From the NCBI RefSeq assembly GCF_988243305.1, contig NZ_OZ547136.1: DNA of 64,000 bases; one strand, written 5' to 3'. Of the stretch, positions 37,100 to 64,000 are shown in pieces. The notes beneath the pieces are model-generated. The model worked only from the letters and a program-made list of their open reading frames with translations. It did not search any database and was not told where the DNA came from. The first letter of the stretch is position 1. Each line of letters starts with the position of its first letter. The position numbers were made by a program, and so were the translations under genes.

Positions 37100-37175
37100 G
37101 GCCCTTTAGCTCAGTGGTGAGAGCGAGCGACTCATAATCGCCAGGTCGCTGGTTCAAATCCAGCAAGGGCCATCA
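37100..37175 (+). tRNA. tRNA with CAU anticodon (Ile2/Met type, ileZ-like)
   Basis: cloverleaf: acceptor GGCCCTT/AAGGGCC, D-arm GCTCAGTGGTGAGAGC, anticodon loop CTCATAA, T-arm GGTTCAAATCC. Confidence 0.8.
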
Positions 37176-37275: not shown

Positions 37276-37352
37276 GCGTTGTTAGCTCAGCCGGACAGAG
37301 CAATTGCCTTCTAAGCAATCGGTCACTGGTTCGAATCCAGTACAGCGCGCCA
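37276..37352 (+). tRNA. tRNA-Arg (UCU anticodon)
   Basis: acceptor GCGTTGT/ACAGCGC, anticodon stem ATTGC/GCAAT with loop CTTCTAA, T-arm GGTTCGAATCC, 3' CCA encoded. Confidence 0.85.
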
Positions 37353-37816: not shown

Positions 37817-38263
37817 ATACATATCTGGATTATCACCGGTTACGGTAAAAAGTGATTGCTTACTGTTTTTGTGAATGGCATTGCAGCAGCCGGATAATGT
37901 CAGTGCTGGCTGACGGTGTGCTGGTGGCGGGTGTGGTGGTTGCTGCTTTCCCGTTGCTGAAAAAGAAAACGCCAGACTGTTAGCCGGGTATCAGTTAGCG
38001 GGAGAAATTTTTAAATACTTCACAATTCAGGCGGTTGACTGTTGTCTGGTTTGCGGGGAGTTTGTTAAAAGAAACTGGCATGGTGAATCCCCCTGTGCGG
38101 AGGGGCAATCAGCGAGTAGGTATATGGGATAATCGCGGATTCAGGTGCTGGTACTGAATTCACCGGGAGGCACCCGGCACCATGCAATGGCACATAGCGC
38201 CACTCTCCAGCCCCTCTCCGGAGGGGCTGTTTATATTGATTTTGTCAGATGTGAGTAAACTCC

Positions 38264-59129: not shown

Positions 59130-59873
59130 ATGACACAGACTGAATCAGCGATTCTGGCGCATGCCCGGCGGTGTGCGCCTGCGGAGTCGTGCGGCTTCGT
59201 GATAAGCACGCCGGAGGGGGAGTGGTATATCCCTTGTGTGAATATTTCTGCAGAGCCGGAGGCGTATTTTCGTATCGCACCGGAAGACTGGCTGCGGGCA
59301 GAGATGCAGGGGGAGATTGTGGCACTGGTCCACAGTCATCCCGGTGGGCTGCCCTGGCTGAGCGAGGCTGACCGGCGGCTGCAGATAAAAAGCGCACTGC
59401 CCTGGTGGCTGGTCTGCCGGGGTGACATTCACAAATTCCGCTGTGTGCCACATCTGACAGGACGGCGCTTTGAGCACGGGGTGACGGACTGTTACACGCT
59501 GTTCCGGGATGCTTATCATCTGGCGGGGACTGAAATGCCGGATTTTCATCGCGAGGATGACTGGTGGCGCAACGGTCAGAACCTTTACCTGGACAATATG
59601 GCGGTCACCGGCTTTTACCGGGTGCCCCTGTCCTCTGCACAGGCGGGCGATATTCTGCTGTGCTGCTTTGGTGCTTCGGTACCGAACCATGCCGCCATTT
59701 ACTGCGGCAACGGTGAGCTGCTTCACCATCTGCCTGAACAACTGAGTAAACGGGAGAGGTATTCCGAAAAATGGCAACGACGAACGCATTCTGTCTGGCG
59801 TCACCGCCACTGGCACGCATCTGCCTTCACGGGGATTTACAACGATTTGGCCGCCGCCTCAGCCTGTATGTGA
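59130..59873 (+). CDS. tail assembly protein K-like (JAB/MPN plus NlpC/P60 domains)
   Basis: ATG 59130 (MTQTESAILAHARRCAPAESCGFV...); HSHP motif; C-terminal Cys/His region. Confidence 0.8.
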   Translation: MTQTESAILAHARRCAPAESCGFVISTPEGEWYIPCVNISAEPEAYFRIAPEDWLRAEMQGEIVALVHSHPGGLPWLSEADRRLQIKSALPWWLVCRGDIHKFRCVPHLTGRRFEHGVTDCYTLFRDAYHLAGTEMPDFHREDDWWRNGQNLYLDNMAVTGFYRVPLSSAQAGDILLCCFGASVPNHAAIYCGNGELLHHLPEQLSKRERYSEKWQRRTHSVWRHRHWHASAFTGIYNDLAAASACM

Positions 59874-60451
59874 ACACGGCAGCGGAAGCCATCCGGGCGC
59901 TGTCGTTACAGGTGCCGGGCTTTCGCCGTCAGATGAACGAAGGCTGGTACCAGATACGTATTGCCGGTTATGACACGGCACCGGAGGCGGTGTACGCCCG
60001 TCTTCACGAACAGCTGGGTGAGGGAACGGTCATCCATATTGTGCCGCGACTGGCCGGGGCCGGAAAGGGTGGACTGCAGATTGTGCTGGGGGCGGCAGCC
60101 ATCGTGGGCTCTTTCTTCACTGCCGGGGCATCAATGGCGTTATGGGGTTCAGCCCTGGCAGCCGGTGGTTTTTCTGCCACCACGATGCTGTTTTCACTTG
60201 GAGCCAGCATGATTCTGGGCGGTGTGGCCCAGATGCTGGCCCCGAAGGCAAAAACACCGGATTACCGCGCAACGGATAACGGCAGACAGAACACGTACTT
60301 TTCCTCGCTGGATAACATGATTGCCCAGGGGAACCCGATGCCGGTGCCTTACGGGGAAATGCTGGTTGGCTCCCGCCGTATATCCCAGGACATCAGCACC
60401 CGTGATGAAGGCGGGGGCGGAACGGTCGTGGTTATCGGGCGACAGGGATAA
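59771..60451 (+). CDS. tail assembly protein I-like
   Basis: MATTNAFCLASPPLARICLHGDLQRFGRR... closely parallels lambda I; overlaps K 3' end. Confidence 0.85.
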   Translation: MATTNAFCLASPPLARICLHGDLQRFGRRLSLYVNTAAEAIRALSLQVPGFRRQMNEGWYQIRIAGYDTAPEAVYARLHEQLGEGTVIHIVPRLAGAGKGGLQIVLGAAAIVGSFFTAGASMALWGSALAAGGFSATTMLFSLGASMILGGVAQMLAPKAKTPDYRATDNGRQNTYFSSLDNMIAQGNPMPVPYGEMLVGSRRISQDISTRDEGGGGTVVVIGRQG

Positions 60452-60463
60452 AACATAAAAAAA

Positions 60464-60490
60464 TCCCGCAGTGATCGCGGAGCTGCGGGG
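60464..60490 (-). terminator. minus-strand-oriented hairpin terminator in the I-J spacer
   Basis: CCCGCAG-(11 nt)-CTGCGGG preceded on + strand by A7 (T7 on minus strand). Confidence 0.45.
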
Positions 60491-60663
60491 ACAGACAAAT
60501 GAAGATCAATGTTAAGGAGTTGTTTTTGTTACTCGGGCAAAAAAACACTAACGCAGCGAAATTATAAGCGCCACAGTCAGTGTGTGAAAATGTGAAGATA
60601 TTCAGAATTTTTATGCCATTACCGGTTTTAACCAACAGGATTATCGGTGGGCATGAAAGAAAA

Positions 60664-60696
60664 CCCCGGTATCTGCTGATACCGGGGTTTCTCTTT
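60664..60696. terminator. perfect 10-bp hairpin, bidirectional terminator in the I-J spacer
   Basis: CCCCGGTATC-TGCT-GATACCGGGG flanked by GAAAGAAAA and TTTCTCTTT. Confidence 0.55.
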
Positions 60697-60793
60697 AGCA
60701 TGGCAGAAATGTGTTTCATGCTTTTCGGACGAAGGATATCCGACTTCTGTACGGAATGGCAAGTGGCGGTTAATTTATTCAGGGGAAGGCTGT

Positions 60794-63700
60794 ATGGGAA
60801 AAGGTGGCGGTAAGGCACACACGCCTCGTGAGGCGAAGGATAATCTCAAATCCACGCAGATGATGAGCGTGATTGATGCGATTGGTGAGGGACCGATAGA
60901 TGGCCCGGTGAAAGGCCTGCAGAGTATTCTGGTGAACAAAACCCCGCTGACGGACACGGACGGTAATCCCGTGATACACGGTGTGACCGCGGTCTGGCGT
61001 GCCGGGGAGCAGGAGCAGACACCACCGGAAGGCTTTGAGTCCTCCGGCTCTGAAACTGTACTGGGTGTCGAAGTGACCAGGGCAAAACCGGTAACACGCA
61101 CCATTACGTCAGCGAACATTGACCGCCTGCGGGTGACCTTCGGGGTGCAGTCACTGGTGGAGACCACGTCAAAGGGTGACCGTAATCCGTCCTCTGTCCG
61201 TCTGCTGATTCAGTTACAGCGTAACGGTAACTGGGTGACAGAAAAGGATGTCACCATTAACGGCAAGACCACCTCACAGTTCCTGGCCTCGGTGATTCTG
61301 GATAATCTGCCTCCCCGCCCCTTTAACATCCGGATGGTCAGGGAGACGGCGGACAGCACCACGGACCAGCTGCAGAACAGAACGCTGTGGTCGTCATACA
61401 CCGAAATCATCGATGTGAAACAGTGCTACCCGAACACGGCCATTGTGGGGATGCAGGTGGATGCGGAGCAGTTTGGTGGTCAGCAGATGACGGTGAACTA
61501 CCATATCCGCGGTCGCATCATCCAGGTGCCGTCAAACTATGACCCGGAAAAACGCACGTACAGTGGTATCTGGGACGGCAGTCTGAAACCGGCATACAGC
61601 AACAATCCGGCCTGGTGTCTGTGGGACATGCTGACTCACCCGCGCTACGGCATGGGAAAACGTCTGGGGGCGGCGGATGTGGACAAGTGGGCGCTGTATG
61701 CCATCGGGCAGTACTGCGACCAGATGGTGCCGGATGGCTTCGGGGGCACCGAGCCGCGGATGACCTTCAATGCGTACCTGGCACAACAGCGTAAGGCGTG
61801 GGATGTTCTCAGTGATTTCTGCTCGGCGATGCGCTGTATGCCGGTATGGAACGGCCAGATGCTGACGTTTGTTCAGGACCGCCTGTCGGATGTGGTGTGG
61901 CCGTACACCAACAGCGATGTGGTGGTGGATGATAACGGCGTGGGGTTCCGCTACAGCTTCAGTGCCCTGAAGGACCGGCACGCGGCGGTGGAGGTGAATT
62001 ACACCGACCCGCAGAACGGCTGGCAGACCTCCACGGAACTGGTGGAAGACCCGGAAGCCATACTGCGCTACGGACGCAACCTGCTGAAGATGGACGCGTT
62101 CGGCTGTACCAGCCGCGGTCAGGCCCACCGTGCCGGACTGTGGGTGATAAAGACCGAACTGCTGGAAACGCAGACGGTGGATTTCACGCTCGGGTCTCAG
62201 GGGCTGCGGCACACACCCGGTGACATTATTGAAATCTGTGATAATGACTATGCCGGGACCCTGACCGGCGGACGTGTCCTGTCCATTGATGCTGCCACCC
62301 GCACCCTGACGCTGGACCGTGAGGTTACCCTGCCGGAGACAGGTACATCGGCGGTGAACCTGATTAACGGCAGCGGTAAGCCGGTGAGTGTGGACATCAC
62401 CGCACACCCCGCGCCGGACCGGATACAGGTCAGTACCCTGCCTGATGGTGTGGAGACATACGGGGTGTGGGGACTCTCCCTGCCGTCACTGCGCCGTCGC
62501 CTGTTCCGCTGTGTCTCCATCCGGGAAAACACGGACGGCACCTTTGCCATCACGGCGGTGCAGCACGTACCGGAAAAAGAAGCCATCGTGGATAACGGTG
62601 CCCGCTTTGAGCCGCAGTCAGGTTCCCTGAACAGCGTCATCCCACCGGCAGTGCAGCACCTGACGGTGGAGGTGAGCGCAGCTGACGGCCGGTATCTGGC
62701 GCAGGCGAAATGGGACACGCCGCGGGTGGTGAAGGGTGTGCGCTTCAGTCTGCGCCTGACCAGTGGTAAGGGAACGGATGCCAGACTGGTGACCACCGCC
62801 ATCACCGCAGACACGGAGCACCGTTTCAGCGGCCTGCCGCTCGGGGAATACACCCTGACGGTGCGGGCGATAAACAGCTATGGCCAGCAGGGTGAACCTG
62901 CCACCACCACCTTCCGGATTGCCGCACCGGCAGCACCGTCGCGGATTGAGCTGACGCCGGGCTATTTTCAGATAACCGCAACGCCACATCTTGCCGTTTA
63001 TGACCCGACGGTACAGTTTGAGTTCTGGTTCTCGGAAAAGCGGATTGCGGATATCAGGCAGGTTGAAACCGCAGCCCGCTATCTTGGCTCGGCGCTGTAC
63101 TGGATAGCTGCCAGTATCAATATCAAACCGGGCCATGATTATTATTTTTATATCCGCAGTGTGAATACTGTTGGCAAATCGGCATTCGTGGAGGCTGTCG
63201 GTCGGGCGAGCGATGATGCGGAAGGTTACCTGGATTTTTTCAAAGGAGAAATCGGGAAAACACATCTGGCCCAGGAGCTGTGGACGCAGATTGATAACGG
63301 TCAGCTTGCGCCGGACCTGGCTGAAATCAGGACGTCCATTACGAATGTCAGCAATGAAATCACGCAGACCGTCAATAAAAAACTGGAAAATCAGAGTGCG
63401 GCAATCCAGCAGATACAGAAAGTTCAGGTTGATACAAATAATAACCTGAACAGCATGTGGGCCGTGAAACTGCAGCAGATGCAGGACGGACGCCTTTATA
63501 TTGCGGGTATCGGTGCCGGTATTGAGAATACGCCAGCAGGAATGCAGAGTCAGGTGCTGCTGGCGGCAGACAGGATTGCGATGATTAATCCTGCGAATGG
63601 CAACACAAAGCCGATGTTTGTTGGTCAGGGCGATCAGATATTTATGAATGAAGTGTTCCTGAAATATCTGACGGCTCCCACCATTACCAGCGGCGGTAAT

Positions 63701-64000
63701 CCTCCGGCATTTTCCCTGACACCGGACGGGCGGCTGACGGCGAAAAATGCCGATATCAGCGGTAACGTGAATGCGAACTCCGGGACGCTCAACAACGTCA
63801 CGATTAACGAGAACTGTCGGGTTCTGGGAAAATTGTCCGCGAACCAGATTGAAGGCGATCTCGTTAAAACAGTGGGCAAAGCTTTCCCCCGGGACTCCCG
63901 TGCACCGGAGCGGTGGCCATCAGGGACCATTACCGTCAGGGTTTATGACGATCAGCCGTTTGACCGGCAGATTGTTATTCCGGCGGTGGCATTCAGCGGC
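60794..64000 (+). CDS. host specificity / central tail fibre protein J-like (3' partial)
   Basis: [52 protein letters not shown]... parallels lambda J N-terminus; frame open to window end. Confidence 0.9.

Follow-up and report, generated by a model that had tools for sequence, protein, structure and literature searches.

The window, that is, the whole 64,000-nt stretch of DNA analysed here, matches a prophage of the PPompW/Sakai Sp12 type that is inserted at ompW and carries nleA, nleG and espM1. Towards its end, the tail assembly gene I, assigned from the ORF list and Pfam (226 aa; PF06805, Lambda_tail_I, E 2.3e-16) and closed by a TAA stop codon at 60449-60451, is followed by gene J, of which the ORF starts with the ATG at 60794 and contains six J/tail-tip Pfam domains, including Ig_J, FNIII-A_GpJ, Phage-tail_3 and Phage_Tail_Tip. 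The spacer between the two genes (60452-60793) is 342 bp long, compared with 60 bp in lambda. This bears out the ~340-bp insert with two hairpins that the initial annotation had described at this position, while its statement that I and J are adjacent in lambda is not strictly correct given the 60-bp gap. The spacer was present in 1,611 of 5,426 complete E. coli genomes, the count for the full spacer being 1,444, and a related 240-bp spacer type was found in 802 complete E. coli genomes; a single EHEC genome carries up to nine I-J junctions of related types. No RefSeq annotation lies inside the spacer in any spacer-bearing genome. The features at the locus are as follows.

59771-60451, plus strand: tail assembly gene I.
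60457-60489, minus strand: intrinsic terminator of the sRNA, with the stem CCCGCAG/CUGCGGG formed by 60489-60483 and 60471-60465.
~60554 to 60457, minus strand: predicted ~98-nt sRNA, the Sp12-type allele of the EcOnc22/23/24 family (promoter and terminator scan; homology to Sakai Sp15, Sp14 and Sp11).
60499-60521, minus strand: conserved predicted single-stranded stretch AACUCCUUAACAUUGAUCUUCAU, candidate seed (alignment and folds of 27 distinct sRNAs).
60499-60567, plus strand: 22-aa ORF MKINVKELFLLLGQKNTNAAKL, rejected as a conserved gene by allele comparison.
60561-60566, minus strand: -10 hexamer TATAAT (promoter scan and allele alignment).
60583-60588, minus strand: -35 hexamer TTCACA, with a 16-bp spacer to the -10 (promoter scan).
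60588-60614, no strand assigned: conserved upstream box AAATGTGAAGATATTCAGAATTTTTAT (near-invariance and recurrence in tandem arrays).
60615-60793, plus strand: J-proximal half, confined to the Sp12/PPompW type.
60652-60702, no strand assigned: hairpin 2, terminator-like on both strands (folding and palindrome search).
60794-64000, plus strand: host-specificity/tip attachment gene J, 5′ part, continuing beyond the window end (Pfam).

The I-proximal hairpin, for which a T-run on the minus strand had been noted, proved to be real. It has perfect 7-bp arms (60465-60471 and 60483-60489) and an 11-nt loop, and on the minus strand the stem is followed by an A and U7 (60463-60457). The A7 at 60457-60463, which lies 5′ of the hairpin on the plus strand, thus becomes the U7 3′ of the stem on the minus strand, and because no U-run is found 3′ of the stem on the plus strand, the terminator is predicted to act on the minus strand only. 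A terminator scan scored this hairpin on the minus strand only as well (60481-60465 plus the T-run). Its folding statistics are modest, with a z of -2.3, six of 200 shuffles equally stable, and two terminator-like sites scanned in the region versus 2.1 expected; its weight therefore rests on conservation and published data.

About 100 nt upstream of this terminator on the minus strand, a near-consensus sigma-70 promoter, TTCACA-16-TATAAT, was identified at 60588-60561 with 11 of 12 consensus matches. We infer a 5′-end GCGUUAG at ~60554 and a 3′-end within the U-run 60463-60457, which gives a predicted RNA of ~98 nt with the sequence GCGUUAGUGUUUUUUUGCCCGAGUAACAAAAACAACUCCUUAACAUUGAUCUUCAUUUGUCUGUCCCCGCAGCUCCGCGAUCACUGCGGGAUUUUUUU. 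The initial annotation had proposed a minus-strand transcript of ~200 nt delimited by the two hairpins; a small RNA that ends at the I-proximal hairpin is retained from this proposal and proved to be homologous to EcOnc22/23/24, whereas the two-hairpin extent is not retained, because the conserved -10 at 60566-60561 predicts ~98 nt and hairpin 2 lies ~100 bp upstream of the promoter. Trans-acting sRNAs of the Hfq type have a promoter of their own and end at a Rho-independent terminator that leaves a long U tail; both elements are present here, and the window RNA has U-rich stretches besides its U7-tailed terminator. As a whole, the ~98-nt RNA folds no better than its shuffles (z -0.95). Searches of the spacer against Rfam at permissive and gathering thresholds returned no family, the best match being the Streptococcus sRNA SSRC34_2 (27 bits versus a threshold of 48), which covered hairpin 2 only. 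Taken together with the homology and conservation described below, 60452-60614 is best explained, with good though not full confidence, as a self-contained minus-strand sRNA gene read against the tail genes.

The first ~175 nt of the spacer are ~75-78% identical to the 240-bp I-J spacers of Sakai Sp15, Sp14 and Sp11, where Tree et al. (2014; PMC4104026, Table S2) reported the homologous Hfq-bound sRNAs EcOnc22, EcOnc23 and EcOnc24, respectively, in the orientation opposite to that of the tail genes. The coordinates of all three fall within the Sakai I-J spacers. EcOnc22 gave an ~85-nt Northern band and was destabilised in the Δhfq strain (PMC4104026). In the supplementary tables of Waters et al. 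(PMC5286369), RNase E-CLASH reads at the EcOnc22 coordinates have the sequence GCCTGAAAAATAACTCCATAACGTTAATCTTCATCGTTCTCTCCCGCAGC, which is exactly the minus-strand body of the Sp15-type module; since the published reads at its coordinates equal that sequence, EcOnc22 is identified with the Sp15-type module. For EcOnc22-24 together, the CLASH reads and the Hfq peak derive from homologous sequence on the same strand as the window sRNA. The same tables list hybrids of EcOnc22 and EcOnc23 with the yjbJ (ECs5028) mRNA, pairing through CCAUAACGUU, one EcOnc24 hybrid with ECs5349, and single EcOnc22 reads joined to an rRNA and to an antisense fragment (PMC5286369), so that the trans targets of the homologues amount there to one or two hybrid reads each. 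The pairing sequence CCAUAACGUU is homologous to 60499-60521 of the window. The function of EcOnc22/23/24 was listed as unknown in a 2021 review (PMC7873438), and a search for a later paper on this family found none, the 2025 HnrS preprint dealing with EcOnc10-12, a different gene.

The window element shares with EcOnc22/23/24 the I-J site, the strand, the upstream box, the -10 column, the 5′ GCGUUA, the AAYUCC and AAUCUUCAU motifs, and the terminator stem with its U-run. It differs from them in being 7 nt longer, in having a consensus -35, and in a different U/A-rich 5′ part. The seed part also differs, reading CUCCUUAACAUUGAUC in the window allele versus CUCCAUAACGUUAAUC in EcOnc22/23/24, and because the seed is partly different, the published yjbJ pairing is not conserved in the window allele. 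On the J-proximal side the window carries hairpin 2, whereas an unrelated CAGGCACCC...GGGTGCCTG lies beside EcOnc22/23/24. By its site in the I-J spacer, its location on the opposite strand, and its sequence homology with the motifs in register, the window element is a member of this family, and we regard it as a new allele in a prophage sRNA family that is already known but functionally uncharacterised. Sakai Sp12, with its I-J spacer at 2217392-2217732 of NC_002695.2, carries a module identical to 60452-60615 of the window. No sRNA is listed at this Sp12 spacer in Table S2 of Tree et al. (PMC4104026), and the window-allele sequence was not found in the accessible part of the CLASH supplementary tables (PMC5286369); expression of the window allele is predicted from its sequence, though its promoter is better than those of the homologues.

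Two points concerning the published tables may be recorded here. In supplementary file 4 of Waters et al. (2017; PMC5286369), EcOnc22 reads are labelled 'asxR2', which looks like a find-and-replace of EcOnc2 by asxR and could mislead users of the table. The EcOnc coordinates of Tree et al. (2014) refer to an older Sakai version and, with AgvB1 and the tR′ sRNA as reference points, are offset against NC_002695.2 by ~+137 to +142 bp at 1.94 Mb and by ~+124 to +132 bp at 2.93 Mb.

Variants of the element were collected from GenBank phages and IMG/VR, yielding 46 unique spacers, 36 unique promoter-plus-RNA modules, and 27 unique RNAs. The initial annotation had made its proposal depend on conservation of the spacer among related phages; in this set, the sRNA module is conserved. 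All variants keep the box AAATGTGAAGAnnTTCAGAAnTTTTAT (window 60588-60614), a -10 of the form [T/A/G]AT[A/C]AT at a fixed distance, the 5′ GCGUUA, the motifs AAYUCC and AAUCUUC(A/G)U, and the terminator stem CCCGCAG/CUGCGGG with U6-8. Most of the variation among alleles lies in the 5′ portion, which is rich in U and A, and in the stretch that separates the two conserved motifs. The terminator stem is invariant in the 27 distinct sRNAs, 18 of which were aligned for the covariation test, and since the stem never varies, covariation speaks neither for nor against the terminator. The consensus fold keeps the terminator only. A U-run and an A-run are kept in all variants and can pair in some alleles; pairing between the 5′-end and the seed was considered as well, varied by allele, and was unconvincing.

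The box is nearly invariant across 44 unique spacers in which the flanks are ~25% diverged, and it recurs before each module in tandem arrays. Within it, the dyad TGTGA-N6-TCAGA at 60591-60606 has its centre 32.5 bp from the first base of the -10; the box can also be read as two 11-bp direct repeats. Coding was rejected as the cause of its conservation, as the small plus-strand ORFs read the box in different frames or stop before it. The dyad is a 9/10 match to the CRP core, with its centre at ~-44.5 in every allele. CRP has a known consensus and known spacing rules and activates from -41.5, -61.5 and beyond. Activation by CRP as a class I or class II activator was rejected because the dyad centre at ~-44.5 fits neither position, lying 3 bp too far from the -10 for class II, and CRP-like core patterns are not rarer than chance in the window (two found versus 2.3 expected). 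The -35 TTCACA is confined to the window allele, and because a usable -35 is missing from the experimentally detected Sp15 (EcOnc22) type, an activator may plausibly be required. The box is probably a regulator site.

The sRNA half and the J-proximal half of the spacer have different distributions. The former occurs in 147 phage records and the J-proximal half of the window in 13, so that 134 of the 147 carry the sRNA half without it. In PhiR12_4 and in Escherichia albertii NBRC 107761, mosaic spacers pass from one half to the other at the conserved box; the E. albertii spacer combines a different sRNA allele, of the Stx2c type (the ACG variant described below), with a window-type J-proximal half that includes hairpin 2. 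Matches in the plasmid collection were all from E. coli, and among 100,044 species-representative genomes the family was found outside E. coli only in E. albertii, besides three suspect entries. These are contigs filed under a Collinsella MAG (L122), Parendozoicomonas haliclonae (L123) and Asaia platycodi (L124), and because they show the same E. coli prophage sequence under unrelated taxa, contamination or mis-binning is the probable explanation. The family does not extend beyond Escherichia prophages. L124 has unrelated DNA in place of the sRNA body upstream of the box.

Based on this anatomy, host RNA polymerase in a lysogen would start ~7 nt past the conserved -10 (60566-60561) and would stop at the hairpin and U7 that abut the gene I stop codon. 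In the resulting RNA, the 5′ part would be rich in U and A, the middle (AACUCCUUAAC...AUCUUCAU) would be conserved and free of structure, and the terminator with its long U tail would follow; the RNA would most likely bind Hfq and pair in trans with host or prophage mRNAs via the middle segment. The stretch AACUCCUUAACAUUGAUCUUCAU contains the family motifs AAYUCC and AAUCUUCRU, and this open middle of the RNA is the likely pairing region according to the folds. The window allele reads ACUCCUUAAC here, which resembles the anti-Shine-Dalgarno end of 16S rRNA. When the seed was compared with the 120 translation starts in the window, the best energy, -21.9 kcal/mol, equalled the mean of shuffled seeds. 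The best in-window seed match lies at 10170-10220 (plus strand), in the start region of a 337-aa ORF (10204-11217), where GAUCGUUAAGGAGU provides a 10-nt perfect complement of the sRNA ACUCCUUAAC; this match is no better than those of the shuffled controls.

The same RNA could instead act in cis, its main partner being the late tail-operon mRNA across I-J, with cleavage or ribosome block as the outcome; such an antisense regulator would tune J versus I, or would hold down tail genes that are leakily or competitively expressed by the several related prophages sharing a cell. The RNA is the perfect complement of 60457-60554 in the transcript between I and J, and the conserved AUCUUCAU/AACUCC is complementary to the plus-strand AUGAAGAU...GGAGUU. 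However, no coding sequence is covered by the RNA, and the J ribosome-binding site follows only ~240 nt further downstream. With up to nine related junctions in EHEC genomes, cross-targeting between prophages would be possible, but the ~25% differences between alleles would weaken it. Moreover, uninduced lysogens, which contain little late mRNA, already produce the homologues, and these are found crosslinked to host mRNAs, among them yjbJ. We therefore consider a mainly cis-acting antisense role unlikely, and a trans-acting Hfq-type sRNA remains the preferred reading.

A protein-coding role was weighed for both strands. The initial annotation had seen no convincing coding ORF in the spacer, and this holds, as none is conserved among relatives and none has a Pfam match. 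On the minus strand, a 128-aa ORF (60818-60432) has no Pfam match and is absent or broken in close relatives, including Sakai Sp12, and is for these reasons regarded as spurious. On the plus strand, the 22-aa ORF had been put forward as a possible leader, and it could alternatively be a small-protein gene (MKINV..., 60499-60567) with the minus-strand RNA as its antisense repressor, similar to a type I toxin-antitoxin pair. A Shine-Dalgarno-like run (GGGGA/GGGAGAG) does lie upstream, the first 9-10 codons are conserved, a 39-aa version ends just before the sense hairpin in many Sp15-type sequences, and two phage records annotate a hypothetical protein here. In the alleles, however, the ORF does not persist either as a leader or as a gene: the ATG is ACG in two allele types (1720a-02 and Stx2c), and frame shifts give lengths of 10, 12, 15, 17, 22, 29, 31, 32 and 39 aa. 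The peptides are not hydrophobic, unlike type I toxins, which sets the pair apart from type I toxin-antitoxin systems; the box is read in different frames or after the stop; the spacer ORFs have no Pfam match; and no plus-strand promoter was found in the spacer. A small-protein gene is accordingly very improbable.

Equally hard to maintain is the absence of any functional gene, with the spacer as mosaic-junction debris plus terminators that attenuate or insulate transcription into J: the spacer halves do recombine freely, a hairpin and U-run precede J even in lambda, and the window allele was not seen in the Sakai datasets (Table S2 and the accessible CLASH tables), but promoter, RNA motifs and terminator stay together as one conserved unit in alleles of only ~75% identity, tandem arrays repeat this unit with none of its parts lost, and the homologues are abundant, Hfq-dependent RNAs (Hfq dependence being published for EcOnc22 only). 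For the same region, the initial annotation had also suggested a cargo insertion scar, a description that does not suit a conserved module with its own promoter and terminator in >1,600 complete E. coli genomes.

The sRNA module rather resembles the morons known from lambdoid phages (Juhala et al., 2000, cited after PMC4104026), additional DNA that separates two genes which relatives have closer together and that brings its own promoter and factor-independent terminator. The 342-bp spacer compares with a 60-bp gap in lambda, and the module has its own promoter and terminator; expression from the prophage, a further moron trait, is shared by the I-J family homologues. It is unlike typical morons in that its cargo is a non-coding RNA, that it is directed against the late operon, and that it is stackable in 2-3 copies. 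As part of the best explanation, the I-proximal half is thus quite probably a moron inserted between I and J, for which a small RNA of the Hfq type is predicted.

In three IMG/VR prophage contigs (L057, L107 and L115), the I-J spacer holds a row of 2-3 complete modules, and every copy has a box, a -10 and a terminator to itself; a different terminator and the motif ACCUCCUUAAGG mark one of the module types in these arrays. The sRNA modules sit between the gene I stop codon and the hairpin upstream of J. These arrangements suggest a further reading, which we offer tentatively and hold to be possible rather than likely: the I-J junction may be a dedicated site for sRNA cassettes, holding one to three genes with the same box, a similar terminator and different pairing regions, exchanged through recombination at the box, so that one regulator would co-control a strain-specific set. 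If this were true, a single regulator would co-control prophage-delivered sRNA sets that differ by strain.

Hairpin 2 is separate from the sRNA gene and is part of the J-proximal half, which further contains a weak second hairpin with a T-run (~60700-60727) and the J Shine-Dalgarno sequence GGGGAAGG (60783-60790). The perfect 10-bp hairpin with flanking T/A runs described in the initial annotation turned out to be stronger than stated, with a perfect 13-bp stem (60661-60673 and 60678-60690) around a 4-nt loop, extending to ~20 pairs over 60652-60702. Its folding z was -8.0 on the plus strand and -8.5 on the minus strand, and none of 200 shuffles was as stable; because of its A-rich and U-rich flanks, it is terminator-like on both strands. 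It occurs only with this spacer type, its 1,444 genomes equalling the full-spacer count, and a dispersed mobile palindrome was rejected on this ground. In a natural variant (L053), 47 bp containing hairpin 2 (equivalent to window ~60664-60710) are missing, apparently by deletion between AGAAA repeats, and the remnant forms a weak AT-rich hairpin, CATGAAA...TTTCATG, with a T-run.

Other lambda-like tail operons have unrelated hairpins at this position. In the 240-bp type, a different hairpin, CAGGCACCC-TCCG-GGGTGCCTG, is followed by UUGUUUU on the sense strand only; it shows one compensatory change from C:G to U:A with a U:G intermediate, and among its 10 distinct sequences the observed covariation score was reached by 27 of 500 shuffles, a weak statistical signal. 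Downstream of this sense hairpin, directly before the J Shine-Dalgarno sequence, spacers of the 240-bp type (L010, L018, L057, L093 and others) repeat the heptamer TCAGACA ~2-5 times. In lambda (NC_001416, 15445-15504), the 60-bp gap contains the sense-strand hairpin AACCGCC-TGCG-GGCGGTT followed by UUUUGUCAUUU. This lambda hairpin (~15465-15485) is like hairpin 2 in being GC-rich, in having a sense U-run, and in lying a few tens of nt upstream of J at the position of hairpin 2; it is unlike hairpin 2 in its unrelated sequence, its 7-8-bp stem, its restriction to the sense strand, and the lack of an adjacent sRNA module. Since unrelated hairpins occur in lambda, in the 240-bp type and in the window type, a hairpin with a U-run upstream of J is conserved in position, and it looks like an old feature of lambda-like tail operons. 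Hairpin 2 would probably serve as a sense-strand terminator or RNA-stability element that is read through by the Q-modified late polymerase. The attenuator of J expression proposed in the initial annotation may apply, as a candidate, to hairpin 2 alone.

Among the known prophage sRNAs, AgvB and AsxR (EcOnc01/02) are likewise short Hfq-binding sRNAs of lambdoid prophages of EHEC, with a conserved 3′ part, variable pairing regions and a fixed map position. They differ from the I-J element in being located at the PR′ moron site downstream of Q/PR′ rather than in the tail operon, in having no sequence similarity to it, and in their length of 51-60 nt. Membership in this anti-sRNA family, which has a conserved ~42-nt 3′ region, was rejected owing to the different locus and sequence. 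HnrS (EcOnc10/11/12; bioRxiv 10.1101/2025.11.27.690950), a repressor of hha, resembles the I-J family in being multicopy, prophage-borne and Hfq-associated, in having an intrinsic terminator, and in having one copy in the Sp12-type prophage; it differs in being its own gene of 66 nt near the lysis/packaging region, ~16 kb away, and in having a known target.

The junction element thus occurs, without RefSeq annotation, in roughly one third of complete E. coli genomes, and EHEC carries several alleles at once. The family was otherwise known as Hfq and RNase E crosslinking peaks; its anatomy is now defined by a promoter, a conserved putative regulator box, a candidate seed and a terminator, and the sRNA is separated from the hairpin upstream of J. 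Variation among alleles is concentrated in the pairing region, and the modules are stackable; together with the anatomy, these features may offer handles on the effects of prophage RNAs on the host or on rival phages. Elsewhere in the same prophage, Rfam gave gathering-level matches to DicF (24586-24637, minus strand), the sok antitoxin RNA (32396-32571, plus strand), two tRNAs (37100-37172 and 37276-37349, plus strand) and STnc100 (38049-38238, plus strand).
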